64,000 nucleotides of DNA from contig OZ251992.1 in NCBI GenBank assembly GCA_965246885.1, positions 1,504,001 through 1,568,000 on the forward strand, given 5' to 3'. The position numbers and the translations under genes are program-made. This stretch comes from Abditibacterium sp. Lineage in GTDB: Bacteria > Armatimonadota > Abditibacteriia > Abditibacteriales > Abditibacteriaceae. Positions 3,051 through 54,440 of the stretch are shown one piece after another (the first letter of the stretch is position 1; each line of letters begins with the position of its first letter). The notes below the pieces were generated by a model. It was not told the DNA's origin, did not search any database, and saw nothing but the letters and a program-made list of their open reading frames with translations.

Positions 3051-3260
3051 TCAAGCTGCTGTTTCTGGAAGTCAAGCTGCTGTGTCTTGGTCTCCAGAAA
3101 GAGTTTCTGGACACCAAGACACTCTTTCTGGAAGTCAAGCTGCTCTCTCTGGAAGTCAAGCTGCTCTTTCTGGAGTTCCAGAAACTCTTTCTGGAAGCCA
3201 AGAAACTCTCTCTGGAACTCCAGAAACTCCGTCTGGACGCCAAGAAACAGCAGCTTGACG
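3051..3260. repeat. Ten-unit 21-bp tandem array of palindromic units with 16-bp terminal inverted repeats
   Basis: Units such as tccagaaa-ctc-tttctgga-ag; 3051-3066 tcaagctgctgtttct is the exact reverse complement of 3243-3258. Confidence 0.95.
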
Positions 3261-3292
3261 CCCCACGCCCGTCGCTTTGGGTGCGGCGTTTC

Positions 3293-5524
3293 TCAGGGCG
3301 TGTCCCGCACGAAGGCATCCGCCGCGCGCAGGGCAAGCGCCATAATTGTCAGCGCGGGGTTCACGTCGAGGGCGCTGGGAAAGATGGAGTTATCGCACAG
3401 CCACAAGTTGGGAATCTCGTGCGAGCGGCCCCACTTGTCCACAACGGAAGCGGAAGCGTCGTCGCCCATCATGGCGGTGCCGATAACGTGGGCGTGGCGG
3501 TTGAAACTCCACATCTCCTTGGCGCCCGCAGCCGCGAAGATGTCGCGCATCAACTTTTCCGAGTGCGCGGCCATTCGCTTCTCGTTGTCTCCCTCGGTGA
3601 AATGCAAACGCGGCTTGGGCAATCCGCGCCCGTCGCGTTCGTCCGAGAGTTCGAGGAAGTTGCCCGCGTAGGGCAAGCAGTCGCCGAGGATATTGATGCC
3701 CGCCGTGCGGTTATAGCCGTTCAAGTGGTCGCGCAGTTCGGGGCCGAACTTCTTCTCGCCGCGCGCGTATTGGCTGGCGTAGGTGACGGGCATCACGCCG
3801 AGCGACTGGAGCAAGTAACCGCCCGCGAAGTCGGCATCCTTGGGCCGGTGCGTGTCGTGCGAGATGAGGCCGCCGGGGATGCCTTTGTAGGGGCGCGTTT
3901 CGTCCTCGAACTGCGCCCACACTTGCATGCCGGGATGCGCCATAAAGTTGCGCCCGACTTGCCCGCTCGCGTTGCAAAGCCCGTTAAGCAGCAACAAGCG
4001 CGGCGTTTCGACGGCGCCCGCGCACAGAAAGAGGGCCTTGGTCTTCTGCCGATGTTCGTTGCCCTGCGCGTCGGTGTAAACGACCGCGACGACTTTGCCG
4101 CCGCTTGTTTCAATGCGCGTGAAGAACGATTCGGGGCGGATTTCCGCTCCCTTGCTGACGGCAAAGGGAATCCAAGTGACATCCACGCTCGACTTACCGC
4201 CCGTCGAACATCCCGCCTGACAGAAGCCGCGATTGGAACAGGCCGCGCGCCAGCCGACGCCGTTTTGGAAATACGGCGCGGACAAGGCGGCGTTGGGCGC
4301 GGCGGAGGTCTTGATGCCGAGAGCGTCGCAGCCGCGTTGCATCAGTTGCGCTCCGGCGTTGAGCGGGAGCGGCGCGAGGGGATAAGCCCTACGCGGCGGC
4401 CCCCAAGGATACGGGCTGGGGCCGGAAACGCCGATGAACGCTTCCACTTCGTCGTAATACGGCTCCAAATCTTCGTAGCCGAGCGGCCAATCGAACCCGA
4501 CGCCGAAATCGCTTTTCAAGCGGAAATCTTCGGGCAGGGCGCGCGGCGTGTAAGCGGTGTAATGGATGGTCGAGCCGCCCACGCCGATGCCAGAGTTGTT
4601 GGAGCCGAACGCGACAGGGTTGTCGCCCGCCGACAAACGCTCGTCCAGCCAAAACAAAAAGCCTTGCGCGCGCTCGTCGGTGGCAAAATTGCGCGGGTCG
4701 TGCCACTTGCCCGCTTCCAAAGCGACGACGTTCAAACCCTTAGACGCCAAGCGCGCCAACAACGGGCCTCCCCCGGCGCCCGTGCCGATGACAACGGCGT
4801 CCACTTCGTCATCGTTCGAGAATCGGCGCATGTTGCCGAGCGATTCCGGCGCGATATTCTTCCACTCAGTTACTTGCGCCGACGACAGAACTATGTCTAC
4901 CGACGGTTGACTTACGTGCGCCGACGGTTGACTTACGTGCGCCAACGGTTGACTTACATCGGTCAAAGGCTCACCGGCGTGATTCTGCGGTTCGCGCGCG
5001 TGCCGCTCGGTCAGCCCGATGCGCGTCCACCCCAGCGCGTCGGCGAAGCCCGCGTAGTTTTGTCCGGCCTGAGTCGAAGGAAGCGCGGCGTAGTTCTCGA
5101 CGACCTCGGCCAGAAAATCAGAAAAGAAGCGGTGCGCGTCGAAGCCGTCGGGGAGCGTCGTGAGCGAGCCGTCGCGCACGTCAACCAGCAGGCCGCTTTG
5201 GTCGTCGGCGTCGGCTTCATCAAAACCGCGCGCACGTAGCGCCGCAAGCACGATGGAGATGGCTTGCCCGTCTTCTGGCAAAGACGCGAAGCGCCAACCG
5301 TTGCCGGTGCCTTTTCCGAGCCGCTCGTCTATGTTGGACGCGATGCGCTCGCCCGCCGCGTCCTCGGTCAGGCGCGCGCAGACGGCGCGAAGCGTGGTGT
5401 AGTCGGCGGGCGAAAAGAAGGTTGGCTCGGCGTTGGGATGGGCGCGCAACCGCTCATGAATGGCGGCGCGCGTGGCGGGCGAGACGGCGTCGGAAGCGAG
5501 CAGGTCGAGGAAATAATCGGGCAT
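3293..5524 (-). CDS. GMC family oxidoreductase with fused N-terminal gluconate 2-dehydrogenase subunit-3-like domain
   Basis: VVIGTGAGG FAD motif, GVGGSTIHY, CSNRGFCQAGC, HVIGTAMMG, NPALTIMALALR; N-terminal ~175 aa resembles the subunit 3 family. Confidence 0.88.
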   Translation of the reverse strand: MPDYFLDLLASDAVSPATRAAIHERLRAHPNAEPTFFSPADYTTLRAVCARLTEDAAGERIASNIDERLGKGTGNGWRFASLPEDGQAISIVLAALRARGFDEADADDQSGLLVDVRDGSLTTLPDGFDAHRFFSDFLAEVVENYAALPSTQAGQNYAGFADALGWTRIGLTERHAREPQNHAGEPLTDVSQPLAHVSQPSAHVSQPSVDIVLSSAQVTEWKNIAPESLGNMRRFSNDDEVDAVVIGTGAGGGPLLARLASKGLNVVALEAGKWHDPRNFATDERAQGFLFWLDERLSAGDNPVAFGSNNSGIGVGGSTIHYTAYTPRALPEDFRLKSDFGVGFDWPLGYEDLEPYYDEVEAFIGVSGPSPYPWGPPRRAYPLAPLPLNAGAQLMQRGCDALGIKTSAAPNAALSAPYFQNGVGWRAACSNRGFCQAGCSTGGKSSVDVTWIPFAVSKGAEIRPESFFTRIETSGGKVVAVVYTDAQGNEHRQKTKALFLCAGAVETPRLLLLNGLCNASGQVGRNFMAHPGMQVWAQFEDETRPYKGIPGGLISHDTHRPKDADFAGGYLLQSLGVMPVTYASQYARGEKKFGPELRDHLNGYNRTAGINILGDCLPYAGNFLELSDERDGRGLPKPRLHFTEGDNEKRMAAHSEKLMRDIFAAAGAKEMWSFNRHAHVIGTAMMGDDASASVVDKWGRSHEIPNLWLCDNSIFPSALDVNPALTIMALALRAADAFVRDTP
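4879..4983. repeat. 21-bp tandem array inside the GMC gene, encoding a heptad linker
   Basis: ccgacggttgacttacgtgcg twice exactly, plus degenerate copies; protein LTDVSQP-LAHVSQP-SAHVSQP-SVDIVLS. Confidence 0.9.
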
Positions 5525-5563
5525 CGGGGGGAAAGGCGCAAAGCGTGTTCCGACGGAAGCCGG

Positions 5564-6322
5564 TTATTTGTCCACCCACTCACACTCCAACTCCAACCGC
5601 GCCCCTTGGCCACGAAAGGTGCCCCGGTGCGGGGCGCAGTCGTGGAAGTCGCGGCCTTTGGCGACGGGCAGGTATCCCGCGCCCGCACTTCGTCCGTGCG
5701 TTGGGTCGAGGGCGTGCCACGCGCGCTCAAACGCCACTTCCACCCACGCATGAAGCGCACCGGGAAAAGGGCCAAAGCCCGCGACATAGCGCGCGGGCAA
5801 GCCAGAAGCACGCGCCAAGCCGAGCAGAACGTGCGCGAAGTCAGCGCAACTACCGCTCTTCTGCTCCCAGACGTCCGCCGCGCGGCGCGGGGCGTCCGCC
5901 GTTTCATGGCGGTAGGCGAGCGACTGGAAAACGAGGGCGTTCAGCGCGTCCGCGCGCTCCCGGCCCGGAAGCGCGCGCATCTCGCGCCCGATTGCTACGA
6001 ACTCTGGCGCGAAGGGAACGGCGCGCGAGGGAAGTTTCCAGTGGCTGAGCGCGCCCCGTTCGAGCGGCTCGGCGGCGGGCGGAGCGCCTGTTTCGATGAG
6101 GAGCGATAAGCAAAACTCACGCTCGATGCGCGCGTGGCAAAGCGAGAGAACGCGATTACCGAAGCGGTCGGTGACTTCGCTTTGGGCGGAGGGTGGGGGG
6201 GAAATGGCAAGCGTTTCCCCCGCGCCCATCCTTTCGGGGCGCGGCAGAACGCGCAGGATGCGCCGGCAGTCGCGCGCGGGCACGTCGTAGAGAACGCGCA
6301 ACTCCAAGCGGACGCGCTCCAT
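5564..6322 (-). CDS. Transglutaminase-like protein (bacterial N-terminal domain plus core)
   Basis: DRFGN motif; catalytic GSCADFAH, HAWVE and DPT; GRDFHDCAP. Confidence 0.9.
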   Translation of the reverse strand: MERVRLELRVLYDVPARDCRRILRVLPRPERMGAGETLAISPPPSAQSEVTDRFGNRVLSLCHARIEREFCLSLLIETGAPPAAEPLERGALSHWKLPSRAVPFAPEFVAIGREMRALPGRERADALNALVFQSLAYRHETADAPRRAADVWEQKSGSCADFAHVLLGLARASGLPARYVAGFGPFPGALHAWVEVAFERAWHALDPTHGRSAGAGYLPVAKGRDFHDCAPHRGTFRGQGARLELECEWVDK

Positions 6323-7012
6323 TTAAGCCCCCGACGGGTCAATCAGGCTGTAGCCGATGCCGCGAATGGTCTTGAGGAGCGGCTTGTCGAAGGGCCGGTC
6401 TATCTTGCGGCGCAGGTAAGAGATGTAGACCTCCAACACGTTGTCTTGGCCGCCGAAGTCGTAGTCCCACACGCTTTCCATGAGTTCGCGGCGGCTCATG
6501 ACGCGGCCCGCGTTCTTCATTAGGGTTTCGAGCAGGCTGTACTCGGTCGCGGAAAAGGTGATCGTTTGTCCGGCGCGCGTGGCGCGGCGCGTGAGCGGAT
6601 CGAGTTCCAACTCGCCCACGCGCAACTTGGTCGAACCTGCCGTCGGGTATCCGGCACGGCGCAGGAGGGCGCGGGCGCGGGCCAGCAGTTCGGGCACCAC
6701 GAACGGCTTGCCCAAATAGTCGTCGGCGCCCGCATCAAGGCCCTTAATTTTGTCTTCAACGGAGTCGAGCGAGGTCAGGATGAGGATGGGCGTCAGGATG
6801 TTGCGGTCGCGCAGGGAACGGCACACCTCGAAACCGGTGCGTTTGGGCAGCACCACGTCCAAAATGATGAGGTCAAACGCGGTGTCGCGCGCGGCGTCCA
6901 AGGCGCTTTCGCCGTCGGCAAGCGCCGTCACCCGAAAACCGCTTTCGTCCAGTACTTGCGCGAGCAGTTCGCGCATCTCGTCGTCGTCTTCTACCACCAG
7001 TGCTTGGTTCAT
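6323..7012 (-). CDS. OmpR/PhoB-family response regulator (no kinase adjacent)
   Basis: LVVEDD, ILDVVLP, GADDYLGKPF, winged-helix TIRGIGY. Confidence 0.95.
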   Translation of the reverse strand: MNQALVVEDDDEMRELLAQVLDESGFRVTALADGESALDAARDTAFDLIILDVVLPKRTGFEVCRSLRDRNILTPILILTSLDSVEDKIKGLDAGADDYLGKPFVVPELLARARALLRRAGYPTAGSTKLRVGELELDPLTRRATRAGQTITFSATEYSLLETLMKNAGRVMSRRELMESVWDYDFGGQDNVLEVYISYLRRKIDRPFDKPLLKTIRGIGYSLIDPSGA

Positions 7013-7252
7013 TGTTACCTCGAAAGTTAATAAAAAGAAAAGCGCGCCTTGGATGGCCAGACGCTCGCGCTTGAAGCCAAAACAGCCGTCATCGTGGCGC
7101 CCTTAGTTTGTCCTGTTCCCCCTCGGCGCGTGCAAACGGGCAAGTGAGGGCGCCAAAGCGCGAAAAATGGGGAACGAGAGGGGGGAGTTGCGGGTCTACA
7201 AGGGGTCGCGCCGGAAGAGACCCTCTTCAAGGCGGCGCGGCCCTTGAACATC

Positions 7253-8893
7253 ATGACTTCTTCCGCAAAAGAAGCGCGCGTCGCCGAGCTACTCCAAGAC
7301 CTCGACGGCAAAAGCGAAACCACACAGCGCCCCATTATAGACGAGATCGTGCGTATGGGCCAAATCGCTGTCAAGCCTCTTTCCAAAGCCCTTTCCTCCG
7401 GCGCGTCGTTCCAAGTTCGCATGGCGTCCGCGACGGCGCTGGGCGAACTGGCCGACGAAGCCTCCGTCGAGCCGCTCGTGGCCGCGCTGGGCGACTCCAG
7501 CCTCAACGTGCAACGCGCCGCCGTCAACGCGCTTTCCCTGCTCGGCTCGCCCGCCGTGCCGCCGCTCCTTATTTCGCTCGATTCGCCCGAAGAGTCCGTG
7601 CGCCGGTGGAGCGCCGAAGTTTTGGGGCGCGTGGGAACGATGGACATCGCGCCGCTTCTGATTGAGCGGCTTCCCGGCGAAGTCCTCGACGTGCAAAAGC
7701 ACATGATCGTCGCGCTGGGCGAACTGCGCCACAAGGACGCCACGCCCGTCTTGATGCCGTTCTTGGAGTCGGACAACATAGACCTCATCCGCCAAACGGC
7801 GGTCGCGCTGGGCCAAATCCAAGACAAACGCGCCGTTGACGGCCTGATAGACATCCTCGAATCTTCCTCGGTTGAAGTGCGCAAAGACGCGGCGGTGGCT
7901 CTGGTGGAGATCGGCAAAGAATCGCCCAAAGAAGCCGTTGATGCCTTGACGCGCGCCCTGGTGCACCCCAACCACAATGTGCGCTTGGCGGCGGCGGAAG
8001 CGTTGGGGCAACTCAAATCCAAGCGCGCGAGTGATGCCCTCGTCCTCGCCTTGAAAGACGACAACGTGCGCGTGCGGCGCTATGCGGCCCTTGCGTTGGG
8101 CGAAATCGGCGACGCCAAAGTCGCCAAGTCGCTGCAAGTATTGCTGGAAGATAAGGTGCAAGACGTGCGTTATTCGGCAGTCAAAGCCGTCGCGGGCATC
8201 GGCGGCCAAGCGGCTATCGCGCCGCTCACAACTGCTTTGAGTGACCCCGACTGGGTGGTGCGCTTAGCCGCCGCGCAGGGGCTGGGCAAGATGAAGTCGG
8301 ACACCTCCGTCGGCCCGCTTTGCGAGGCGCTTAAAGACCCCGAATGGAGCGTGCGCTATCACGCGGCGCTCGCGTTGGGCGACATCGGCAAGCTCGAAGC
8401 GGTGATGCCGCTCATCAAAACGCTGCGCGACCCGCGCGAGGGCGTGCGGCGCGGCGTCGTCGAGTCGCTCGGACGCTTGGGCGACAAGCGCGCCGTTCCC
8501 GCTTTGGAGCGCCAGCGCAAAATCGAGGAAACCGACGGCGCCAAACTCGCCATCGCCATGATAGACATGGTGCTTCCCGGCCTCAAGCGCGGCAAAAAGT
8601 TCGAGCCGAAACCGGAGCAGCGCTTCCAACCGGCGCCCATCATCAACTCGGCGACCATTAAGCCCAAAGCCGCGATTCTGGCCGCGCAAGAAGCGCACGC
8701 GCGCATGGCCGCTGAAGCAGCCGCCGCCGCTTCGCGCGAGGACGCCGACGATACCGTTGACGCCGCGATGGATCCGGCCCTGCTCGGTGACGGCGACCTC
8801 GCCGTCGCCGCCATCGCGGGCGGCGACCTCGACGCCGAACTGTCCGTAGACATCACGTCGGGCGATTCGGGCGAACTGGGCGAGGGAATTTAA
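7253..8893 (+). CDS. HEAT-repeat (PBS-lyase-like) protein
   Basis: Many VRxxAAxALGxxG repeats and an acidic C-terminal tail; TTG at 7244 is an alternative start. Confidence 0.9.
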   Translation: MTSSAKEARVAELLQDLDGKSETTQRPIIDEIVRMGQIAVKPLSKALSSGASFQVRMASATALGELADEASVEPLVAALGDSSLNVQRAAVNALSLLGSPAVPPLLISLDSPEESVRRWSAEVLGRVGTMDIAPLLIERLPGEVLDVQKHMIVALGELRHKDATPVLMPFLESDNIDLIRQTAVALGQIQDKRAVDGLIDILESSSVEVRKDAAVALVEIGKESPKEAVDALTRALVHPNHNVRLAAAEALGQLKSKRASDALVLALKDDNVRVRRYAALALGEIGDAKVAKSLQVLLEDKVQDVRYSAVKAVAGIGGQAAIAPLTTALSDPDWVVRLAAAQGLGKMKSDTSVGPLCEALKDPEWSVRYHAALALGDIGKLEAVMPLIKTLRDPREGVRRGVVESLGRLGDKRAVPALERQRKIEETDGAKLAIAMIDMVLPGLKRGKKFEPKPEQRFQPAPIINSATIKPKAAILAAQEAHARMAAEAAAAASREDADDTVDAAMDPALLGDGDLAVAAIAGGDLDAELSVDITSGDSGELGEGI

Positions 8894-8911
8894 CTTTTTC
8901 CCTCTGGGGCC

Positions 8912-9394
8912 ATGAAAAAGAAACCTCCCAAACTGCTCGGCGACGAAACCATCGCGCTTAACCGGCGCGCACGGCACGACTACGAAATCGCCGACTCGCT
9001 CGAAGCGGGCATGGTGCTCACGGGCAGCGAAGTCAAGTCGCTGCGCACCGGCGGCGCGCAAATCGCTGAAGCGTACGCCACGATAGACGCCATTCGTGGT
9101 GGCGGCGCCGAAGCGTGGATTTACGGGATGTACATCCCGCCCTACAAGCCCGCGACCTATAACAACGTGGATTCGCGCCGCAAGCGCAAGCTCCTGCTCC
9201 ATCGCTCGCAAATCAACAAGCTCATCGGCCAAAGCGCGCAGAAGGGCTACACGCTCATCCCCCTGAAGCTCTACTTCGCGCGTGGTCGCGCTAAGATAGA
9301 AATCGGCCTCGCCAAAGGCCGCGCCACGCACGACAAGCGCCGCGCCATCGCCGAACGCGAGATCAAGCGCGACTTGGCGCGCGAGGGGAACTAA
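8912..9394 (+). CDS. smpB: SsrA-binding protein SmpB
   Basis: NRRARHDY, EAGMVLTGSEVKSLR, RKRKLLLH, GYTLIPL, HDKR. Confidence 0.97.
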   Translation: MKKKPPKLLGDETIALNRRARHDYEIADSLEAGMVLTGSEVKSLRTGGAQIAEAYATIDAIRGGGAEAWIYGMYIPPYKPATYNNVDSRRKRKLLLHRSQINKLIGQSAQKGYTLIPLKLYFARGRAKIEIGLAKGRATHDKRRAIAEREIKRDLAREGN

Positions 9395-9439
9395 GACTAC
9401 CGGTTCCCACGCGGCGCTTGCTTAACTCTGCGGCACCTT

Positions 9440-10798: not shown

Positions 10799-10801
10799 CC
10801 C

Positions 10802-13352: not shown

Positions 13353-13369
13353 CCCAAATCAGTGGTTAG

Positions 13370-13786: not shown

Positions 13787-14353
13787 TTACTTAACGGACA
13801 GGTTGTCCACAACGGTGTAGCCGTTGGCTTTCTGTTTGGCGATGGACTCGGCGAGCGTCTTTTGCGCAGCGCTGGTGACGGTGCCAGACAACTTGACGGT
13901 CTTGGCGGCCACGTCGGTGTCCACGTTGATGCTGGAGCCGTTGAGGGCTTTGTTGCCACCGAAAGCGGTTTTGATTAGCGGAGTCAACGCCGCATGAGAG
14001 GCGGCAGCACCCACGTTGGCGGCACCGTTGGCGACGGCGGCTCCGGCATTCGCGGCACCGTTGGCAACAGCAGCCCCCGCATTCGCGGCACCATTGACGA
14101 CATTAGCGGCACCGTTAGCAACCGCCCCGCCCACATTGGCGGCGCCGTTGACGACTTTCGCGCCGCCATTGGCGACCGCGTTAGCGGTGTCGCCGAGGTT
14201 GTCGGCGACCTTGTTGGCGACTTTATCGCCGCCATTGACAGCAGCGTTGGCGGTGTCCGAAGCGGCGGTGTCGCCGCCATTGCCGCAACCCGCCAAAGCG
14301 AGGATGACGGCGCCCGTTCCGAGCAAAGCGCCCATTGTGCGAATGTTTTGCAT
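13787..14353 (-). CDS. BON-domain lipoprotein with Ala/Asn-rich 11-aa repeats
   Basis: Lipobox LAGC; NGAANxGAAVA repeats; C-terminal INVDT..VKLSGTV..VVDNLSV. Confidence 0.88.
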   Translation of the reverse strand: MQNIRTMGALLGTGAVILALAGCGNGGDTAASDTANAAVNGGDKVANKVADNLGDTANAVANGGAKVVNGAANVGGAVANGAANVVNGAANAGAAVANGAANAGAAVANGAANVGAAASHAALTPLIKTAFGGNKALNGSSINVDTDVAAKTVKLSGTVTSAAQKTLAESIAKQKANGYTVVDNLSVK

Positions 14354-17034: not shown

Positions 17035-17197
17035 GGTGACGCAGTGACAGACGCCTGTCACTGGGCGACAGATGTCTGGGAATCGTCGAGGGATGTCTGC
17101 CGTCGCGTCACGGACGTCCGCCACGCGATGCCAGACGTCTGCGAGGCAATGACAGACGTCTGTCACTGCGCGAGGGACATCCCTCGACGCGTCACCG
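17035..17197. repeat. Seven-unit 21-bp tandem array of palindromes (consensus tgacagacgtctgtca)
   Basis: Units start at 17045, 17066, 17087, 17108, 17129, 17150 and 17171; bounded by the inverted repeat cggtgacgc/gcgtcaccg. Confidence 0.92.
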
Positions 17198-34764: not shown

Positions 34765-37332
34765 CTAACTCGTTTGCACGAGGCTCAGCTTGTCGCCCCA
34801 GAAGCGGTGCAGGGCTTCCTTGAGAAAGGCGTGTTCGGGGTCGTCGAGGTGCGGGTCTTCACTCACCACGTCCCACGCCGCTTCGCGGGCGCGCTGGATG
34901 ATGTCTATATCGGTCAGGAGGTCGGCGATGCGAAAGTCGGGGATGCCGCTTTGCCGCGTGCCATAAAGTTCGCCCGAACCGCGCAGTTTCAGGTCTTCCT
35001 CGGCGATGACGAAGCCGTTCTGCGTCTGGCACATCACGTTGAGGCGCACCTTGCCCTCGTCCGATTTGGGGTTCGCCAACAAGATGCACATAGATTTGTG
35101 CTGCCCGCGCCCGACGCGGCCCCGTAATTGGTGCAGTTGGCTCAGCCCGAAGCGGTCGGCGTCCTCAATCAGCATCACGGTTGAGTTCGGCACGTCCACG
35201 CCCACCTCAATTACTGTGGTGGATACCAGCACGTCGTGCATTTGCGCGCGGAACAGTTCCATTTGCTCGTCGCGCTCTACAACATCCAACTGGCCGTGAA
35301 CGAGGCCGACACGAAGCCCTTTGAGTTCGTGCTCGCGCAAACGCTCGGCCACCGAAGTGGCGGCTTGCAGGTTCACCAATTTGTCCGATTCTTCCACCAA
35401 GGGGCATACTACGTATGCCTGACGCCCTTTGGCCACCTCCGCGCGCACGTAAGCGTACGCCCGCTCGCGCGCTTCCGGCTTGACTTTAATAGTTTTTATT
35501 GGCTGGCGACCGGGCGGCAGTTCGTCCAAGACGGACACATCCAAGTCGCCATAAATGGTCAGCGCCATCGTGCGCGGGATGGGTGTCGCGGTCATAACCA
35601 GCACATCCGGGCGAAGTCCGCCTGCCCCCTTGCGAGCGAGCGCCGCGCGTTGCATGACGCCAAAGCGGTGTTGTTCGTCCACCACGCACACGCCCAGCTT
35701 TTGGAACTCCACGCCTTCTTGAATCAGCGCGTGCGTGCCGACGACCACATGGATGCGCCCTTCGGCCAAGTCCGCCAAAATCTGCCGCTTATTCTTCGTT
35801 TTAAGACTCCCTTCCAACAGCCCGACTTCGACGCCAAGCGGCTCCAGAATCTTGCGCAACACGTAAAAGTGCTGCTCGCTCAGAATCTCCGTCGGCGCCA
35901 ACAGCGCGCCTTGGAAGCCCGCTTTGAAGGCGCTCCACAGCGCATACGCCGCCACGATTGTCTTGCCGCTTCCCACGTCGCCGTGAAGGAGGCGGTTCAT
36001 CGGACGCGGACTCTTCAAGTCTTTGCGCACCTCGTTCATCACCCGCTTCTGCGCGCCGGTCAGCTTGAAGGGCAGGGCGGCGAGGAACTTCTTTACTTCG
36101 TCGTCGGGCACAATATGGCGGATGCCCGCTTCCTCCAAGTGCGCCGCGCGCTTCTTTTGGGCGAGCGCCACCTGAAGCAGAAAGAGTTCCTCGAAGACCA
36201 GCCGATAGCGCGCGGCCTCCTTTTCCTCCCAGTCGGTCGGTGCATGGATGGCCCGCAGCGCCGTTTCGAGCGGCACCAAGCTGAACTCTTCGAGCAACCT
36301 CGCGGGGATCGGGTCGGGAATACGCCCCGCGCATTTCGCCAGCGCGTCTTCCGTTGCCCGGCGCAGGTTCGATTGGAACAAGCCCTCGGTGAGCGGGTAA
36401 ACCGGCACTATTTTGCCGACCTGACTGCCGTCTTCGTCGCCGATGAACTCGAATTCCGGCACATCCATCTGGCGGTAGCCGTTGAACTCCGAAATCTTGC
36501 CGTAAACGAACAGTTTCTGGCCGACCTTGAACTGCTTCTCGCGCCACGCCTGATTCCACCACTGCAAATCGATCTGCGAGTCGCCATCCCCCACGCGCAC
36601 TTTCGTGACCGAGCGGTTGCCCACGCCCATTTTGCGCGTTTGCGGCTCGTATAGCACCTCGGCCAGAAAGGAATCCTTCTCGCCTGTTTCGATGTCGCCC
36701 AGCGCCCGGATGAGGCGACGGTCTTCGTAGCGCGCCGGAAAATGCAGGAGCAAGTCGCCCACCGTTTGGATGCCCCACTTGGCGAGCAGCTTGGCCTTTT
36801 GCGGCCCGACGCCGCGCAGGTAGGTCACGGACTCGGCGAGCGGGTCGTCGGAAGCTCTCACCGATACCGGCGCCCGGTTCACCGGCATGTGAGATTCGTC
36901 CACCGGGGCCGGGGAGTCGTCCGCGTGTACGCGGGAACCGTTCACCGGCATGCGCGAATCGTCCGCGCGTATGCGCGAATCCTCCGCCGGTACCGGCGCA
37001 ACGATGGCGCGCGTCGCGTTGCTTTCAAAAAGCGGCGCGTTGTCGAGGGTGTCTTCCAATTTGTCGAGCAGTTGCGCGGTAATCCATACGATGTCGCGGC
37101 GGCGCTCTTCCTCCTCGCGCGGGTAGAGCGTCCAGATGTCGTGCAAGCGTTGGAGGGAGAACTCGCAGTTGGAAGGCACTTCTTCCGACCCGTCTTCGAT
37201 GGCCGCGAGCGCGCGCCCCGTGAGCGCCACGAAATGTTGCGCCGTGCCACCGGACACCGCGATGTTCATGAACTCGGTGCGTTCCTCGTCGGGCAGGGGC
37301 AGGCGCAACGCCTCAATAGTTTCACGCAACAT
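34765..37332 (-). CDS. recG: ATP-dependent DNA helicase RecG
   Basis: LLHGDVGSGKT, DEQHRFG, MTATPIPRT, QLHQLRGRVGRG, DLKLRG. Confidence 0.97.
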   Translation of the reverse strand: MLRETIEALRLPLPDEERTEFMNIAVSGGTAQHFVALTGRALAAIEDGSEEVPSNCEFSLQRLHDIWTLYPREEEERRRDIVWITAQLLDKLEDTLDNAPLFESNATRAIVAPVPAEDSRIRADDSRMPVNGSRVHADDSPAPVDESHMPVNRAPVSVRASDDPLAESVTYLRGVGPQKAKLLAKWGIQTVGDLLLHFPARYEDRRLIRALGDIETGEKDSFLAEVLYEPQTRKMGVGNRSVTKVRVGDGDSQIDLQWWNQAWREKQFKVGQKLFVYGKISEFNGYRQMDVPEFEFIGDEDGSQVGKIVPVYPLTEGLFQSNLRRATEDALAKCAGRIPDPIPARLLEEFSLVPLETALRAIHAPTDWEEKEAARYRLVFEELFLLQVALAQKKRAAHLEEAGIRHIVPDDEVKKFLAALPFKLTGAQKRVMNEVRKDLKSPRPMNRLLHGDVGSGKTIVAAYALWSAFKAGFQGALLAPTEILSEQHFYVLRKILEPLGVEVGLLEGSLKTKNKRQILADLAEGRIHVVVGTHALIQEGVEFQKLGVCVVDEQHRFGVMQRAALARKGAGGLRPDVLVMTATPIPRTMALTIYGDLDVSVLDELPPGRQPIKTIKVKPEARERAYAYVRAEVAKGRQAYVVCPLVEESDKLVNLQAATSVAERLREHELKGLRVGLVHGQLDVVERDEQMELFRAQMHDVLVSTTVIEVGVDVPNSTVMLIEDADRFGLSQLHQLRGRVGRGQHKSMCILLANPKSDEGKVRLNVMCQTQNGFVIAEEDLKLRGSGELYGTRQSGIPDFRIADLLTDIDIIQRAREAAWDVVSEDPHLDDPEHAFLKEALHRFWGDKLSLVQTS
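36858..37004. repeat. Seven-unit 21-bp palindromic array in frame within the recG N-terminal linker
   Basis: Units such as ccgcgtgtacgcgggaaccgt and ccgccggtaccggcgcaacga; taccggcgc recurs at 36865 and 36991 (126 bp apart). Confidence 0.85.
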
Positions 37333-44792: not shown

Positions 44793-44797
44793 GCGCT

Positions 44798-44955
44798 CAG
44801 AGAGGGCGGCGAGCGGGTGACAGATGTCTCTCATCGCGTGAGGGAGGTCGCTGATGGGGCGACAGACGTCTGTCAGAGGAAGGGGGGCGTCTGTGGCGGA
44901 AAGAGGGACGTCGTTCACCGCGCGACAGACGTCTCTGGCGTGGTGACGGGAGGAG
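44798..44955. repeat. 21-bp palindromic array (same family as 17035-17197) flanked by a 9-bp direct repeat
   Basis: Units tgacagatgtctctca.., cgacagacgtctgtca.., cgacagacgtctctgg..; ataagcgct at 44789-44797 and 44956-44964. Confidence 0.88.
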
Positions 44956-45131
44956 ATAAGCGCTAACGCTTCGCACTTTGGGATTATGCGTCCAAAGCGC
45001 GAAGAGCTATGGAAGATTCCAAGACAAAAAAGTGCCTAAAGAGAACTTGCGCCGGGTCTGAGAAGTCTGTAGATTCAATATCCGAGCCGGGGAATCAGAA
45101 TTGCTGCCGGAGAGGGAGACGAGGAGTTTCG

Positions 45132-45647: not shown

Positions 45648-45650
45648 AAC

Positions 45651-45845
45651 ATGAATGGCACGCTTGGCCTGCTCGCTCTTGCTCTGCTCGCTGTTTGCGT
45701 TGTTTGGCTCATCATCTTCGAGGCCGTCCGTAGTTGGGCTTCTTCGCGTAATTGGAGAAGTGCCGCTGGCTGTGTTGGGCCGATAGGCGGAGTCATTTGG
45801 TTCTTGTTGGCATTGGTTTCTTTGTTAACCGCTCGATTGCACTGA
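45651..45845 (+). CDS. Small two-TM membrane protein
   Basis: 64 aa with two hydrophobic segments; ATG follows the feoA stop by 3 nt. Confidence 0.55.
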   Translation: MNGTLGLLALALLAVCVVWLIIFEAVRSWASSRNWRSAAGCVGPIGGVIWFLLALVSLLTARLH

Positions 45846-45924
45846 CTAACTGCGGACACCTGATCGTAAACCCACATGGGGCGGCGTCCCCTCTCTTTCG
45901 TCTTCTAATCAACTCCCTACAGCC

Positions 45925-48045: not shown

Positions 48046-48052
48046 ACCTCCT

Positions 48053-48244
48053 ATGAACATTCAAGACCTCGCCGTTTTCGCCATCGTCGCCCTCGCCGCG
48101 ACCTATCTCGTCCGCGACTGGCTCCGCGCGTCCAAGTCGGACGGCGGTTGCGGCAAGTGCCATAGTTGCCCCTCCAAAGCCCCCGCCAAGCCAGAAGCGC
48201 AACTGGTGCAGATTGATTTGGGCGGCAGTTGGAAGCGGCCTTGA
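48053..48244 (+). CDS. FeoB-associated Cys-rich membrane protein
   Basis: TM helix followed by GGCGKCHSCP, directly after feoB. Confidence 0.85.
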   Translation: MNIQDLAVFAIVALAATYLVRDWLRASKSDGGCGKCHSCPSKAPAKPEAQLVQIDLGGSWKRP

Positions 48245-48365
48245 TGGGGGTTGAAATTTGCTTGTGGAGAGTGGCACGACTGGCCGTTTGTTTGAGCGGA
48301 GTTGTGCTTTCTTTGGTGCGGCCTTCACACTGTTGGGAGCCGTCCCTCTTTACTTCCATCTTTTC

Positions 48366-50549
48366 ATGCAAACCCAGACCCCCTTGCCCCATCTCCCGGC
48401 CCCGGTTAAAGCGCGCGATGGCGGGGTGACGGCGCGGGTGGTGTTGCTGTGCTTGTTGCTCGCGGGGTTCTTTGGGTGGGTGATCCCGCTCATTGATGTC
48501 AAGCTGAGCAACACCTTTTTGGGCGGGCAACATCTCGCGCCGGGGGCGGTGGGGACGCTGCTGGTTTTGTTGCTGGTCGTCAACCCGCTCTTGCGCTTGG
48601 TGCAACGCGCGGCGACTTTGCGGGGCGTGATGTTGCTCGTTGCCCTCGCGTGTGTGGCGCTGGCTTATTTTGGCTGGGTGCGCAACATCTCGAATGGGCT
48701 GGTGCTGTACGCGGGGGCGGCGGGCGCGTTCTTCGCGCTGTTAGGCGCTCTATTTGGGCGGCCTTTGTCGCGCAACGAGCTATTGACCACGTATATTTCG
48801 TGCTTGTTCTCGTGCATCGTGCCGGGGCATGGGGCGGAGAACTTTGTCATCGGCAACCTCGTGGCGCCCTTTTACTTTGCCACGCGCGACAACAAATACC
48901 TCGACGCCATTACCCGCTACATTCCGGCGTGGATGACGCCCGTTTTGTGGGCCGACCCCTCGCAAAAGGGCGCGACCACGCTCAGCGCGGCGGGCCGCGC
49001 CGTCGCGGACGGATATTATCTGGGAGTTGGCCCCGTGCCTTGGAGCGCGTGGCTCGTGCCGATGGCGTTTTGGATGGGCTTCATCTTGCTTTCCTACATC
49101 ATGCTGGGCTGTTTGAGCGTGATGCTACGCGCGCAGTGGGCGGAAAACGAGGCGCTATCGTTCCCACTTAACCAACTGGCGTTGGAACTGACCGAGGACG
49201 CAGATGCGCCGAGTGGGACATTCGGCGCCTTCTTCCGCAATCCGCTCGTGTGGGTAGGCTTTGCAATTGCGGCGGTGTTTCAGGGGTTGAACGGGTTGCA
49301 CTTATATTTCCCCGACGTGCCGATGATCGAGTGGAACCTCAACACCGGGGCGCTCTTTTCCGAAGCGCCTTGGAACCAGATGGGGTGGACGCCGATGCAA
49401 ATCTATCCCATCGCCATCGGGGTCGCGTTTCTGCTCACCAGTGAAGTTGGGTTTTCCCTCTGGTTTTTTGCGCTTTTCGTGCGCTTCCAGTTCATCGCCT
49501 CCTACATGTTGGGGTATCCGCCGGGGGTATCGGGCGGGCGCGACCTCGCCGTATTCCAAAGTTTCGGCGCTTTTTTCGCGTACGCCGCCCTTGTGATGTG
49601 GACGGGTCGCTTGCATTACACCCACATCGCGCGCCGCGCATTGGGTTTAGCGCGCGCGACGCCGGAAGAGCGGAGCGAGATACTTTCTTACCCGCTCGCG
49701 TTTTGGGGCTTCGTTCTCTCGCTGATGGGCGTCATGGCCATTACGCACTTCCTCGGCGCGAATTGGGCGATTACCTTTCTGTTGTGGGCGACGTATCTGG
49801 TCATGAGCATCGCCCTCACCCGGTTAGTGGTGGAAGGCGGCGTATTGTTCGTGGGTTGCGCGTGGTGGCCCATCAATATGTGGACGCAGTTACTCAACGG
49901 CTCGCCCGCGACGTGGCTCCCCGCGTCCAGCATCGCGCCCGCCGCACTGATGCACAGCGCCTTCATGCTCGATATGCGCGCCTTCATCCTCCCGTCGTTC
50001 GTGCAAAGCTGGAAACTGGCGTCCGACAATGGGCTGAACCAAAAGCGCTTGGGCGCTTTGATTGTCGCCATCATCCCCATTGCGCTGGTGTTGGGCTTTT
50101 ATCGCCGCGTGGACATCGCTTACAACAACGGCGGCGCCCTGACGTGGCACCCCCACGTCGCCAAGAACGGCGTTATCCTGTGGGCGAACTTGTCCGCAGG
50201 CTTGGGCCGGGGCGTCGAGAACGTGACGTGGACGAACACTTTCTGGGTGATTGTCGGCGCCCTGCTAACTTGGGGGATGCTGGCCCTGCGCGCGCGCTTT
50301 GCGTGGTTTCCCTTCCATCCTTTGGGCTACCTGATTCCGCTTTCTTACCCGATGCTGTGCCTTTGGTTCTCCATTTTCCTCGGCTGGACAGCGAAGGTCG
50401 TCGTTTCCAAGTATGGCGGTAACTCCGCTTACCGCACCACCCGCCCGCTCTTTCTGGGCCTCGTCTTCGGCGACATTTCCATGATGCTCTTCTGGCTCGT
50501 CATAGACGGCTGGCAAGGGAGAACTTTCCACTACCTCGTGCCGACGTGA
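48366..50549 (+). CDS. Polytopic membrane protein (DUF6785/DUF6784-like, putative transporter)
   Basis: Many TM helices; QWAENEALSFPL, FPFHPLGY, PLFLGLVFGD. Confidence 0.7.
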   Translation: MQTQTPLPHLPAPVKARDGGVTARVVLLCLLLAGFFGWVIPLIDVKLSNTFLGGQHLAPGAVGTLLVLLLVVNPLLRLVQRAATLRGVMLLVALACVALAYFGWVRNISNGLVLYAGAAGAFFALLGALFGRPLSRNELLTTYISCLFSCIVPGHGAENFVIGNLVAPFYFATRDNKYLDAITRYIPAWMTPVLWADPSQKGATTLSAAGRAVADGYYLGVGPVPWSAWLVPMAFWMGFILLSYIMLGCLSVMLRAQWAENEALSFPLNQLALELTEDADAPSGTFGAFFRNPLVWVGFAIAAVFQGLNGLHLYFPDVPMIEWNLNTGALFSEAPWNQMGWTPMQIYPIAIGVAFLLTSEVGFSLWFFALFVRFQFIASYMLGYPPGVSGGRDLAVFQSFGAFFAYAALVMWTGRLHYTHIARRALGLARATPEERSEILSYPLAFWGFVLSLMGVMAITHFLGANWAITFLLWATYLVMSIALTRLVVEGGVLFVGCAWWPINMWTQLLNGSPATWLPASSIAPAALMHSAFMLDMRAFILPSFVQSWKLASDNGLNQKRLGALIVAIIPIALVLGFYRRVDIAYNNGGALTWHPHVAKNGVILWANLSAGLGRGVENVTWTNTFWVIVGALLTWGMLALRARFAWFPFHPLGYLIPLSYPMLCLWFSIFLGWTAKVVVSKYGGNSAYRTTRPLFLGLVFGDISMMLFWLVIDGWQGRTFHYLVPT

Positions 50550-50559
50550 AGCGCCGGGT

Positions 50560-50814
50560 CTACGGCATCATCTTGTCGTACTGCGCGTGCGAATCTACCC
50601 AGAACCACAGCACGCTGCCATCGTGATCGAATCCTAACACCCGATAATGCGTGCCGACGCGGTCAGACCACAGGCTCCCCACTTTCTTGAAGTGCAGAGA
50701 CGAGTGCTTCGGGTCTGCTTTCAAGAGGCGGAAGTTCTTCCTCTCCAATTTCTGAATGTGAAGCGGCAACCGCTCGAACATCTGCCAGAACTGCGGCGTT
50801 GTCCGGTGCTTCAC
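50560..50814 (-). CDS. RelE/ParE-like toxin
   Basis: DPKHSSLHFKKVG.LWS.RVG.HYRVLG..WFWVDSHAQYDK; GTG start overlaps the antitoxin stop. Confidence 0.85.
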   Translation of the reverse strand: MKHRTTPQFWQMFERLPLHIQKLERKNFRLLKADPKHSSLHFKKVGSLWSDRVGTHYRVLGFDHDGSVLWFWVDSHAQYDKMMP

Positions 50815-51017
50815 AACGGTTTGCAGCGCCCCGCCGCGTGTTCGGCTTTGGCTTGTTTGATGAGCGCGTCGAAGCGCCCCGCCTCGCTGTCACGGGCGAT
50901 TTGCTCGTCCCACATTTGGTTGCGATACTCCTCGAACCACTGGGAAAGCTCCGCTACTTCGGAGCGCGGAAGCTGCGTGATGGCCTGTTCGATGTCTTGA
51001 ACGCTCATGGTGTTCAT
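50811..51017 (-). CDS. Putative antitoxin
   Basis: IEQAITQLP..WF.E..WDEQIARD..AGRFD; coupled to the toxin. Confidence 0.8.
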   Translation of the reverse strand: MNTMSVQDIEQAITQLPRSEVAELSQWFEEYRNQMWDEQIARDSEAGRFDALIKQAKAEHAAGRCKPL

Positions 51018-51059
51018 TTACTCTGCCATGCCCACGACGTGCTTGGGCGGTGGTTGGCA

Positions 51060-54000
51060 TCACTTCTCCACGCGCGACACGAAGGAGCGCGTCCACTCTG
51101 GGAGCTTCGGGGCTTGCGGGGTGCGCAGCAACTCTTGCCACCCGGCGTCGGATAAACGCTCGGAAGCGGGGCGGGTGAACTCATAGTAGGAATACGCGGC
51201 GCCGCGTGCCAACTGGCGCCTGCCGTCTCGCTCGAACGCGACATAAAGGGGCAGGGCGTGGCCGACGCCTTCTTCGAGCACCCGCAGGTCGGCTCCCTCG
51301 CGGGTCGAGAGGGCACCCGCCACGTCCGCGACGAGCGCCATGTCGCTGTCTTCCATCGTTTGCGCTTGCCCTTCGCTGGAGATGAGCGTCAGGTGTTCGA
51401 GGAAGGTGCCAAAGAAGCGCAACTGCTCAATTTCGCCCTTGGTGAACGGGGTGCCCGCGCGCTGCTTCGCTTCCAAGCGTGTCACCATATCCAACAGCGC
51501 CCCGAACGCGCCCAAACGGTCGTCCGATTCCGGCGATAAATACCCCGCGCCCGCGAGGGCGAGGCGCTCCGCCGATACTAATTCGCGCAAGCGGTGGAAC
51601 ACTTCGGGAGACGGCTCCACCACGCCTTGGGGTTGCTCCTCCAGCATCACTTCCGACAGCCCGCCTTCGCCGCCCGCTTCGATGGCGGTGGGTTGCTTGG
51701 GCATCGTATCGTGCTTGAGTTCCGCCCACGCGCCCAGCGCCGCGTTGAGTTGCTTGTCGGCCCACGCCGGGGACTGCGTGAACTTGTAACGCGGGTTGGC
51801 TTGCGGCGTAAGGAGCGGTTTGAGCGACCACAGCGTCTGGGAGTAGAATGAACGCTTCCAGTCGTCCGGCCCAAAGGCGCTGAGCCGCGCCCTCTCGATG
51901 AGGAACTGCCGGTCATAGTTCTGATAGCCCGACTCCTTGAGGCCGAAATCGAAGAAAGAGCCGCCGAAGGTGAAGGTATCTAAGAGGCTGCGCGCCCGAT
52001 CGGAGCCTAAGACGCCCATCGCGTCCAAGCCCAGCGCGAAAAAGCGCGGCTTGTCTTCTGTCCCGACTCCGGGCGCGTTGCGGTTGTACACCAAGTGCTG
52101 CATCGCTTCCGCGTCGAGCGTATAAGGCGCCGGAAACAGCGTCATCGCGGGGCCGCCCGTTGGCGCAATGCGGGGGCGCGGCAGCTTGTCCACTTCGGAT
52201 TGGAACAGCGCTAATCTGGCCGCGTCGTTAATGGCGTCGGGCGGAATCGTCTCGCCATACACGCCGCGCGCAATGGCCACGACATCCAGAAAGCGGCGGT
52301 CGTCGCTTTCACCAACGAACTGCGCCATCACCCGCGCAACTGCGCGCAGTTTAGCCTGCGTGGGCGCATCCGTCGCACTCGCCAGCAACAGCGTGCGGCG
52401 CAGATGGGCGGGCGTGGCGCGAAACGGGGCGCCTGACAGCCACCGGCTCGCCAGAAAGAAACGGCGTAGCTGCTCCGTGCGCGTGTAGTGGCCGCGCGGC
52501 GCGAACTGCGTGTAGTCAATGCGCGTGTCCGCGAGCGGCTCTTTCGGCTTGCCAACGCCCGTCAACTCTCCGCCGAAGATGGGGCTTGATGCGCGGGCCG
52601 CGTGCGCCTTGATAAGCGCGATTTCCGCATCGGCCAAACGCCCCGCCTCGAACGGCAACGCTTCCAACAAACGGCCAAGCGGAGCCGTCAAAGCGTTTGA
52701 GGCCGCCGTGTTCTTCGCCAAATTCCCCTTCAAACGCGCCGCATCGTCCGCGCTCGCGTCGGCGGGTGGCGCGCTAATGCCCGTCGTCACTTCCCCGCGC
52801 AATAGCCGCGCGGTCACTGCCCAGTACGCGGCATTGGCCAGCGCTTCTTCGCGCAATGCGGGCACGCGCGACTGCTGAATCGAAACTTGCAAAAAGTGCC
52901 GCGCGATGTCCACCGTCGCGGGCAGCAAGTGCTTGGTTTCCGTTTCGCGCAGGAGGGAATCGAACACTAAATGGTTCAAGTGCAACAGCGCGTCGCTCGA
53001 CACGAACACGGGCAGGCCCGCGTAGTCGGTCTCTTCATACAAGGCGAACATCTGCTTCGCGCCCGCTCCGCCCACGACGAAACCGTTGCGCGCGAGGAGA
53101 GGGCGGTCTTGCGCGGTTAGCCCCTCGAACTCGTCCGAGCCGGAAAACGCCACGAGGTTAGAAACATCCGCGAGTGGTTCGATGTTGGGGCGGGCCGCGA
53201 TTTGCCCGTCGGCTGTGGTGATGAAAGTAATTTTCCCATCGCGCGCCCAAAAGACGCCTATCGGCGAGGCGGGGCCGCTCATCCGATAATTCGGCCCATA
53301 CCCCGGCGACTTGGCCACAGATGCTGTGTCGCGGCGCAACACTATCAGTGTGTTCAGTCCCGCAACGGCCAACTGCTCGCCGTTGGGCGAAAAGGCAATG
53401 CGGCCTTCTGGTTCGATGCCGCTCAACTTGCTGATTGATTTACGCCACTCCTTTAGGTCGATGCTCATGCCCTTGGAATTGCCTTTGTCGTCCATCTCTT
53501 CGCTTTCTGTCGGAAACTCGGCGACGCACAGCGCGCTTGCACCCGCGAACGAGCGCACAAACGCCATGATCCGCCCAGTTGGGTCAACACGCGGCAACGT
53601 GTAATTTTCGGCGGTTCCGGTCTCCAAAACGCGGCGGTCGGTTCCGTCGTCGCGCATGAGCAGCAGCTTCCCGTCGCTCCCCGCGACGCTTTGGCGGGCG
53701 AGGATTTTATAAAAGCGGGCGCCGACCTTGACGCCGAAGGTCGGGCGCGGACTACCTTTCTCGTAGGCTTCGATGGCGCGAGGGCTTCCGGCCAAACGCT
53801 GCATAAGCCGTAGTTCGGACGGGGCGATGTGCGACGCGGAGCGGTCGGGCACAAAAGGGGCGCCGCCGTTTTCTTGAACGATAAAGCGGCGCGGGGTGAA
53901 ACTTGGCTCGGTGATGTCCACGTTTGGCGTGTTGGTCAAACGCCGTAGGCCCGTCCCATCGGGGCGGATGGTGTAAAGCGAAAAACGCTTGCTCGTGCCG

Positions 54001-54269
54001 CGCTTCCCGGCGAAAACGAGGAGTTTCCCGTCGGGGCGCCACGCGGGTTGCATGTCGTTGCCGCGCGCTTCGCGGGTGATGGCGCGGGCGCCCGTCACGC
54101 TTTTGCCGTTCCAGCGCCCCACGAACAAGCGCGAGCCACCCGCCGTGCGCCGCTCGAAGACGAGTTTCGTGCCATCGGGCGAAAGCGCCGGGTTGCGGAG
54201 CGGCCCGCCTTGAGCAAGCGCGGCGGCAGGTAGAGAACAGAGTACGGGCAAAAGCAGCGAAGATTTCAT
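51060..54269 (-). CDS. Secreted DUF3160-domain protein with N-terminal TolB-like propeller repeats
   Basis: Signal peptide; PALSPDG/PAWRPDG repeats; DYTQFAPRGHYT, WAELKHDT, LVADV, GAAYSYYEF. Confidence 0.85.
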   Translation of the reverse strand: MKSSLLLPVLCSLPAAALAQGGPLRNPALSPDGTKLVFERRTAGGSRLFVGRWNGKSVTGARAITREARGNDMQPAWRPDGKLLVFAGKRGTSKRFSLYTIRPDGTGLRRLTNTPNVDITEPSFTPRRFIVQENGGAPFVPDRSASHIAPSELRLMQRLAGSPRAIEAYEKGSPRPTFGVKVGARFYKILARQSVAGSDGKLLLMRDDGTDRRVLETGTAENYTLPRVDPTGRIMAFVRSFAGASALCVAEFPTESEEMDDKGNSKGMSIDLKEWRKSISKLSGIEPEGRIAFSPNGEQLAVAGLNTLIVLRRDTASVAKSPGYGPNYRMSGPASPIGVFWARDGKITFITTADGQIAARPNIEPLADVSNLVAFSGSDEFEGLTAQDRPLLARNGFVVGGAGAKQMFALYEETDYAGLPVFVSSDALLHLNHLVFDSLLRETETKHLLPATVDIARHFLQVSIQQSRVPALREEALANAAYWAVTARLLRGEVTTGISAPPADASADDAARLKGNLAKNTAASNALTAPLGRLLEALPFEAGRLADAEIALIKAHAARASSPIFGGELTGVGKPKEPLADTRIDYTQFAPRGHYTRTEQLRRFFLASRWLSGAPFRATPAHLRRTLLLASATDAPTQAKLRAVARVMAQFVGESDDRRFLDVVAIARGVYGETIPPDAINDAARLALFQSEVDKLPRPRIAPTGGPAMTLFPAPYTLDAEAMQHLVYNRNAPGVGTEDKPRFFALGLDAMGVLGSDRARSLLDTFTFGGSFFDFGLKESGYQNYDRQFLIERARLSAFGPDDWKRSFYSQTLWSLKPLLTPQANPRYKFTQSPAWADKQLNAALGAWAELKHDTMPKQPTAIEAGGEGGLSEVMLEEQPQGVVEPSPEVFHRLRELVSAERLALAGAGYLSPESDDRLGAFGALLDMVTRLEAKQRAGTPFTKGEIEQLRFFGTFLEHLTLISSEGQAQTMEDSDMALVADVAGALSTREGADLRVLEEGVGHALPLYVAFERDGRRQLARGAAYSYYEFTRPASERLSDAGWQELLRTPQAPKLPEWTRSFVSRVEK

Positions 54270-54440
54270 GGCAGTTGACGGGATGAACGGCAACCGATAG
54301 GATATAACGCGCGCCGGTTCACCGAGCCGCGCCGACGACGGAATCATGCCTGCCAATTAGAGAATTGCGCGCGTCGAAGAAGAAAACAGGCGCGCCACCG
54401 ACGGAATTACATGCGCCACCGACGGAATTACGTGGCTGAC
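54270..54440. repeat. Degenerate 21-bp array spanning the CapA-family/DUF3160 junction
   Basis: gcgccaccgacggaattac at 54392 and 54413; gcgccgacgacggaatcat at 54329 (63 bp earlier). Confidence 0.7.

Follow-up and report, generated by a model that had tools for sequence, protein, structure and literature searches.

Lineage-specific 21-bp arrays in an Abditibacterium genome and a candidate dimeric helix+FN3 protein

Closest described systems

Tandem repeats with a constant length of 20-21 nt are a known class, in print as species-specific and mostly non-coding sequences of many bacteria (Subirana and Messeguer 2021, PMC8161180). The sections of that paper drawn on here remark on the two helical turns, propose a polymerising protein or small RNAs, and leave as an open question why many bacteria keep two-helical-turn repeats of free sequence (PMC8161180). 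The present analysis concerns six arrays with a 21-bp period in the genome of Abditibacterium sp. (G000; 3.56 Mb, two contigs), all within one stretch of 64,000 nucleotides, G000:C1:1504001-1568000, here called the window. The six belong to about 290 lineage-specific arrays in this genome; at no better than even confidence, we take them for stray copies of arrays that are linked to a helix+FN3 protein gene and that its predicted dimers may bind.

Like the published class, the G000 arrays keep to one period in the 20-21-nt range, fall into several species-specific families within a single genome, are mostly non-coding, and have short words in common (same sections of PMC8161180). Among the class traits tested, the excess of one length, the several families, the species specificity, and the mostly non-coding nature are all found in G000; the first-pass annotation of the window, which did not recognise the arrays as a described element, is superseded on this point. 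Dyad symmetry, a partner gene, and linker replacement are features of the G000 arrays that those sections do not describe for the 20-21-nt class (PMC8161180). G000 has about 290 arrays, whereas Bacillus genomes are given there as averaging 22.8 tandem repeats, with detection methods that differ (PMC8161180). The core of the arrays is absent from 12 genomes of the same genus, yet it is sporadic in other phyla.

Repetitive extragenic palindromic (REP) sequences and REP doublets forming hairpins (REPINs), with their REP-associated tyrosine transposases (RAYTs), are short palindromes that occur in hundreds of lineage-specific copies and carry no gene of their own. The G000 arrays share these properties. 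In contrast, REPs form no strict 21-bp lattice of variable units, and the palindromes at the Y1-transposase genes of G000 are other sequences. Rickettsia palindromic elements and cyanobacterial small dispersed repeats (SDRs) comprise modules or palindromes of 21-27 nt that are tolerated in frame in proteins. Elhai and colleagues reportedly described the cyanobacterial families SDR1-8 in 2008, and SDR5 is said to insert precisely into the HIP1 palindrome. While these elements insert precisely, in G000 the host linker is lost and the units build long mosaic arrays; precise in-frame insertion with an intact host is not seen at the scored sites, where later deletion is possible. The multicopy nucleotide sequences of Geobacter also occur in genes and in all frames (PMC2996986, PMC2700814). 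Unlike the G000 arrays, they are described in the parts of these papers drawn on here as insertions, with no fixed 21-bp lattice or partner gene (PMC2996986, PMC2700814).

Arrays of the window and the genome-wide excess of period 21

All six arrays reported by the first-pass annotation are recovered by Tandem Repeats Finder (TRF; rows 3051-3248, 4900-4957, 17113-17166, 36917-36987, 44865-44912, and 54392-54431 for arrays 1-6) and by lag-21 identity, which is 0.48-0.71 as against 0.13-0.29 at lags 20 and 22. The sixth extends to about 54464. No strand is assigned to them. Array 1 (3051..3262) separates the genes for a GMC oxidoreductase and a hemD fusion and consists of ten 21-bp units, each with an 8-bp arm, a 3-bp centre, a second 8-bp arm, and a 2-bp spacer. 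Array 2 (4879..4983) comprises five in-frame units within the GMC oxidoreductase gene (3293-5524, minus strand). Array 3 (17035..17197) has seven units of the superfamily around CAGACGTCTG and lies between a GH26 gene and a gene for a pyridoxal phosphate (PLP) enzyme. Array 4 (36858..37004) has seven in-frame units in the N-terminal linker of recG (34765-37332, minus strand), and array 5 (44798..44955), with six to seven units of the superfamily, separates a SpoIIE-type phosphatase gene from feoA. Array 6 (54270..54464) is degenerate and spans the junction of a PGA_cap gene, which gains 20 C-terminal residues, and a DUF3160 gene. Terminal inverted repeats are present, as claimed, at two arrays (16 bp at array 1 and 9 bp at array 3), and array 5 has a 9-bp direct repeat on both flanks with the copies 167 bp apart.

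The units abut directly, without spacers, and a search of the window against Rfam matches no family; a CRISPR array was rejected on these grounds. No transposase or reverse transcriptase (RT) is found among the 44 open reading frames that were scanned for protein families, out of the 245 listed for the window.

The preference for 21 bp extends over the whole genome, a point that the first-pass annotation had proposed to check. Of the 1118 TRF rows, 342 have period 21, 84 have period 42, and 37 have period 63. A lag scan finds 360 segments at lag 21, and 59, 46, 35, 6, and 4 at lags 18, 24, 27, 20, and 22; with a stricter score the count is 235, as against 18, 11, 6, 1, and 1 at the same lags. 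When lag segments are merged and those below 55 bp discarded, 289 arrays result, which total 34 kb (0.96% of G000) and are evenly distributed along the chromosome. With our own gene caller (3024 genes), 179 are intergenic, 94 lie inside genes, and 16 lie across gene ends. Genome-wide, the arrays have no orientation bias relative to genes and no strand or position preference. Ordinary coding repeats are a minority, represented by family 9, which is within genes in 14 of 15 cases.

The window arrays are present in short-read contigs from two runs, both of one study, with zero differing letters (run X1 covers arrays 1, 2, and 3, run X2 also covers 1 and 2, and arrays 4-6 are likewise covered), and one of the two runs may be the source of the assembly. 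The letter-identical contigs rule out an assembly artefact.

Unit anatomy, families, and non-coding character

Clustering of the arrays yields families of 96, 42, 21, 12, 9, 9, 6, and 5 members. The superfamily around CAGACGTCTG consists of four families and one small family and includes window arrays 2-6. Array 1 belongs to a second family, family 23, together with the array that lies upstream of the helix+FN3 gene C1:525622-526317. The statement that the arrays share an architecture and no sequence is therefore incorrect for five of the six.

Two dyad axes, separated by 10.5 bp, run through the imperfectly palindromic units. Against column-permuted controls, the dyad symmetry of arrays 1-6 has p values of 0, 0.046, 0, 0.026, 0.0005, and 0.23, significant in five of the six, with array 6 as the exception; genome-wide, 86 of the 289 arrays lie above the 95th percentile of the controls. 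Four of the six window arrays also fold better than shuffled sequences (z -2.8 to -8.3), and array 6 does not. The lattice is strict: among 330 superfamily unit spacings of up to 70 bp, 259 are at 21, 57 at 42, and 14 at 63, with no others. Superfamily loci with at least two units have a peak at 5-7 units (75 of 146). The array edges are fairly sharp and not fixed in sequence, and in the superfamily the information drops from 6-7 to 2 bits within one unit.

One lattice frame resembles a heptad peptide. The 107 intergenic superfamily arrays, however, contain stops in all three lattice frames (1.0, 1.7, and 3.3%), and 22-31% of their changes are synonymous, which is the neutral share. The in-gene arrays (21 calls, two of which look like false gene calls) are read in all frames, in 10, 7, and 4 cases. 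Stops in every frame, the neutral synonymous share, and the use of all frames in genes indicate that the arrays are DNA elements and not peptide repeats, and heptad-peptide coding is ruled out for the intergenic arrays by the first two. The symmetrised superfamily profile has conserved positions at every third base although it is non-coding, and this is not a rule in other families.

Copying and shared descent

Half-units 21 bp apart within an array are identical in 19% of cases, while adjacent mirror halves are identical in 0.3% and halves of other arrays in 0.4%. This suggests that slippage, that is direct copying, dominates. Exact inverted copies of at least 16 bp occur in 19 of 97 arrays as against 4.3% of between-array pairs, and those of at least 20 bp in 8 of 97 as against 0.3%. 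The excess of long exact inverted copies indicates that local fold-back copying also takes place. Fold-back synthesis, one of the mechanisms put forward in the first-pass annotation, is thus detectable in a minority of arrays and is not the main generator.

Units at different loci share ancestry. The half-units of family 43 comprise 541 distinct forms among 902, fewer than the 707±9 given by independent columns or the 661±13 of a first-order Markov model. An exact 21-mer is held in common with another array by 57 of the 289, and families 1 and 35 include copies in which the whole array and the flanks are alike (91% over 353 bp and 87% over 193 bp).

A perfect 169-bp duplicate that includes an array is present at C1:668017-668123 and 672878-673009, where it brackets a 4.8-kb block of four genes. 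Integration at the arrays, or recombination between them, is a possible origin of this arrangement.

Empty sites and lost linkers

Four relatives with about 80% nucleotide identity to G000 were compared, namely G003, G012, G010, and G002; in the tree, G000 is sister to G003 (support 100/96). None of the four has a matching array at the sites of arrays 2-6 wherever both flanks are anchored, and the empty orthologous sites that had been anticipated do exist. The site of array 1 is not syntenic in relatives. That of array 5 is empty in G002, G000 being longer by 171 nt, and at array 6 the difference is +62 to +63 nt relative to three relatives. At the array 3 site, relatives have either a short spacer or a short-period hairpin repeat that is unrelated. 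Loci L032, L043, and L048 hold such an unrelated short-period inverted repeat, with ACACAGAG-type words, at this intergenic spot, which suggests that the site has been struck by different repeats.

The multiplication of the arrays is specific to one lineage. One core pattern has 45 copies in G000, none in 12 genomes of the same genus, and is present in 1 of 400 other genomes of the phylum. In sampled stretches, G000 has 6.6 segments per 100 kb, G053 has 5.4 (its sample being contigs chosen for family genes), and nine others have 0-1.5; G003 has one locus in 47 kb. G003 has an orphan 21-bp array of its own (L033:2106-2290), which is unrelated in sequence and lies some 500 bp upstream of the gene for the hemD fusion.

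In-gene arrays replace the ancestral linker rather than lengthen it at the four sites that were scored: the GMC gene, recG, a gene that we take from its motifs to be uvrA-like, and C1:2889498. At the GMC gene, array 2 accounts for a site of 117 nt in G000, as against a conserved 60-nt linker in the four relatives. The linkers of the four relatives resemble one another with z 6.9-18.5, while G000 compared with them gives z -0.7 to 1.7 at the GMC gene, the uvrA-like gene, and C1:2889498. The recG linker retains some likeness at its edges (z 1.3-4.3 for G000 against relatives, compared with 4.2-14.6), and the ancestral linker is mostly gone. The net changes are +57 nt in the GMC gene, +15 to +24 in the uvrA-like gene, +51 to +60 at C1:2889498, and +75 to +78 in recG relative to the four relatives; they are no multiple of 21, save by the length of one relative. 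Three further in-gene sites look alike by eye and are too divergent or poorly alignable, or have one relative only. The frame-preserving presence of arrays in genes, as proposed earlier, is thus confirmed, while their description as insertions is not, the ancestral linker being gone.

The helix+FN3 gene and its upstream arrays

Other phyla too have arrays that share the core, and one of these arrays precedes an orphan gene of 222 residues. A similar gene of G000 was located from this orphan at C1:525622-526317. The gene, whose product is P0002, belongs to a restriction-modification island and has a family-23 array 46 bp upstream; the surrounding region, C1:520114-529394, is presumably a cluster of type I restriction-modification genes that also includes an ATPase gene. 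At 50% clustering P0002 has 156 relatives, none of them named. Its structure model comprises a three-helix domain and an FN3 fold, with a predicted local distance difference test (pLDDT) of 94.8. The best matches in fold searches, which barely probed the helical part, are FN3 domains (Z 12.2, root-mean-square deviation 2.3, 89 aligned). Basic residues are conserved at positions 107, 115, and 160.

P0002 is predicted to form a two-fold homodimer. The homodimer prediction, made with our own alignment, scores 0.84, and the best of three controls scores 0.00; the mark used is reached by 20 of 30 solved homodimers and by 1 of 23 single chains. The runs have a contact agreement of at least 91% and a pLDDT of at least 85, and the modelled interface is on the long helix.

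Among 11 homologous loci in the family, nine have upstream arrays (seven of period 21 and two of weak period 22), and two partial genes have none. At more distant loci across the phylum, 11 of 19 have a signal at 21, 42, or 63, in some cases weak. A 21-bp lattice of the core CAGACGTCTG stands directly before a family gene of other organisms in 6 of 54 core-bearing arrays, in three independent sets. These 54 are drawn from 82 public loci, and of 50 genome matches to the core, many are chance pairs or coding repeats. In G000, an array is found 46 bp upstream of one helix+FN3-type gene and 78 bp upstream of another, the background being 112 of 3024 genes. Five further G000 candidates are filed by architecture, of which one has its array 78 bp upstream, one 640 bp upstream, and three have none; the window gene at 60568..61527, described below, is among these candidates. 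None of the six window arrays has a helix+FN3 gene beside it. Orphan arrays exceed gene-linked ones by about 100 to 1 in G000 and are present in housekeeping genes.

Paralog families built at E 1e-8 include none that is enriched beside arrays, and a DUF6261 search of G000 gives no match. Viral contigs have no match to one strict two-unit pattern, which is a narrow test. Loci L075 (Hydrogenedentota) and L083 (Nitrospirales) have an almost identical 21-bp unit, a likeness that may hint at inter-phylum transfer.

Proposed origin of the arrays

Phased sites for a dimeric protein are our best guess as to what may fix the period. Palindromic units would fit a two-fold dimer, and a period of two turns would fit binding along one face of the helix. 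The predicted dimer would occupy one unit per two DNA turns and so set the period. Repair or illegitimate recombination at a break would bring in a copied block of 5-7 units from another locus, and this step would remove 60-140 bp of host DNA. The surviving copies would be those in spacers and those in linkers with a net change divisible by three. The units would later be mixed by direct slippage and, more rarely, by local inverted copying.

Several observations weigh against this origin. No spreading enzyme is found, and the two short-read runs have no array length variants and so give no sign of present activity, although such contigs lose rare variants. As many as 203 of the 289 arrays individually fail the dyad test. 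At about 80% identity, an insertion followed by deletion of the old linker looks the same as replacement in one step, and the two cannot be told apart. The second G000 gene matches the family profiles at no better than E 0.13 and 0.003 and is placed by architecture. Of the six candidates in G000, three lack an array; no more than 3 of the 289 arrays come within 700 bp of any candidate, and nothing in the largest superfamily is gene-linked in G000. With a median of +0.5 the helix+FN3 family is close to neutral in charge, and no DNA-binding or catalytic domain is known from it. G157 has 15 family matches and no arrays in 100 kb, and gene dosage as a predictor of orphan arrays was rejected since it fails for this genome.

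Alternative explanations

The arrays might instead be non-autonomous elements of the REPIN type, or miniature inverted-repeat transposable elements (MITEs), moved by a transposase encoded elsewhere, with the helix+FN3 gene a passenger or unrelated; we regard this as unlikely. The typical size of 5-7 units fits a mobile element, as do the whole-element copies with common flanks in families 1 and 35. Five Y1-transposase matches are present in G000, one of them adjoining a family gene, and the terminal inverted repeats, the direct repeat at array 5, and the hairpin folds in four of the six are of the kind that such elements carry. However, read by eye, the palindromes at the five Y1 genes do not resemble the array units, each gene having its own unrelated set, and the array palindromes flank none of the five; REPINs with a RAYT were rejected on this basis. 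The single RT gene of G000 has no array within 3 kb. The first-pass annotation proposed a search for a gene that consistently adjoins arrays, and what is found there is the helix+FN3 gene, at nine of 11 family loci, and neither an RT nor a Y1 transposase.

The flanking direct repeats of 9-11 bp that had been noted earlier are not confirmed as target-site duplications. Direct repeats of at least 9 bp flank 12 of 121 arrays as against 3.4 expected, and seven of the 12 are spaced by a multiple of 21, leaving five off the lattice as against about three expected. For both copies at array 3, counterparts exist in relatives that lack the array. There is no general target duplication, the superfamily has no fixed terminal sequence, and the old linker is lost. 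A MITE was rejected for the lack of fixed ends in the superfamily and of a duplication excess off the lattice, while families 1 and 35 do share flanks. Of the repeat-generating or mobile system first proposed, the dispersed and lineage-specific repeats are upheld, and classic insertion with target-site duplication is not.

It is quite unlikely that the arrays are selected chromosome-organising or regulatory sites, formed in place by mutation toward the preferred sequence of a polymerising protein, an idea proposed in section 4.1 of PMC8161180. The even chromosomal spread, the strict lattice, and the near length-neutral replacement at the uvrA-like gene are in line with it. In contrast, the sharing of units between loci exceeds the expectation for independent sites, the old sequence is traceless at three sites, close relatives live without arrays, and gene orientation is unbiased.

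A role as RNA, with transcribed hairpin repeats bound by the helix+FN3 protein or altering transcript stability, is very unlikely. Transcription of a 52-nt class is reported in the sections of PMC8161180 drawn on here, and four of six window arrays fold better than shuffles. Folding, however, follows from the palindromes, array 6 folds no better than shuffles, the arrays have no strand or position preference, no Rfam family is present in the window, and a period of two helical turns would point to duplex DNA. The layout of an array followed by a small gene resembles that of type III toxin-antitoxin loci, which have near-identical RNA repeats before an RNase toxin gene. In the present case the units are degenerate and the downstream protein models as a helix bundle with an FN3 domain.

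Ordinary minisatellites or seven-residue coding repeats, each arisen by slippage at its own locus, are scarcely credible and are largely refuted by the frame, shared-unit, and copy data: direct copying does dominate within arrays, one frame is heptad-like, and family 9 comprises true coding repeats, but slippage has no reason to choose 21, stops occur in all frames with neutral synonymous rates, and units and whole arrays shared between loci contradict slippage locus by locus.

Two-module helical gene and other features of the window

At 60568..61527 (minus strand) the window has an orphan gene without an array of its own; its product is all-helical according to the structure model and consists of two similar modules. 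This is an associated family, linked to arrays through the loci of relatives. Its homologues in relatives have an upstream array of 21 or 41 bp at 8 of 10 loci; six of these eight arrays have period 21 and two have period 41 (two fragment loci of 14 are excluded from the period count). A doubling of the period along with the doubled helix is thus not general. Profile comparison with the helix+FN3 family is not significant (hhalign probability 2.9%, E 0.016), the model contains no FN3 domain, and it has no match in the PDB at E 0.001. The gene and C1:2317180-2318106 are 80%-identical copies, neither of them with an array. Both copies are just behind low-GC or RHS-like genes and have REP-type palindromes after them. 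A separate REP family with a 14-bp core is present at window position 60533 and genome-wide in 77 copies, and a second REP family has 30 copies. The 77-copy family agrees with the palindromes that adjoin the Y1 gene at C1:1930539.

A coding repeat of period 33/54 in a BON-domain gene (window positions 14004-14179) is unrelated to the 21-bp arrays. The region 61618-63924 is low in GC (44.6% in the last 2 kb), contains orphan and HEAT-like genes, and is probably foreign.

Implications for the repeat class

A full-text literature search, mostly without subscription papers and supplements, finds nothing on gene-array pairing or linker replacement. What is new here is a bloom at the species level, at sites that are empty in sister species, together with the disappearance of ancestral linkers, a quantified mixture of direct and inverted copying, and a dimer prediction. 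A bolder form of the preferred origin, which we consider doubtful, is that of a widespread system of two parts, in which the small dimeric helix+FN3 protein would polymerise on the 21-bp lattice and drive the copying of that lattice over the chromosome without a transposase, writing over spacers and protein linkers, as a self-propagating satellite with its own reader.

G000 combines the candidate reader P0002, its own array, eight orphan sister arrays that include window array 1, and relatives with empty sites. If host DNA is indeed replaced in one step, this would be a route of repeat spread and linker turnover unlike the insertion of REPs, MITEs, and SDRs. If the bolder form is correct, the helix+FN3 protein would be the polymerising protein long postulated for the constant-length 20-21-nt repeats.

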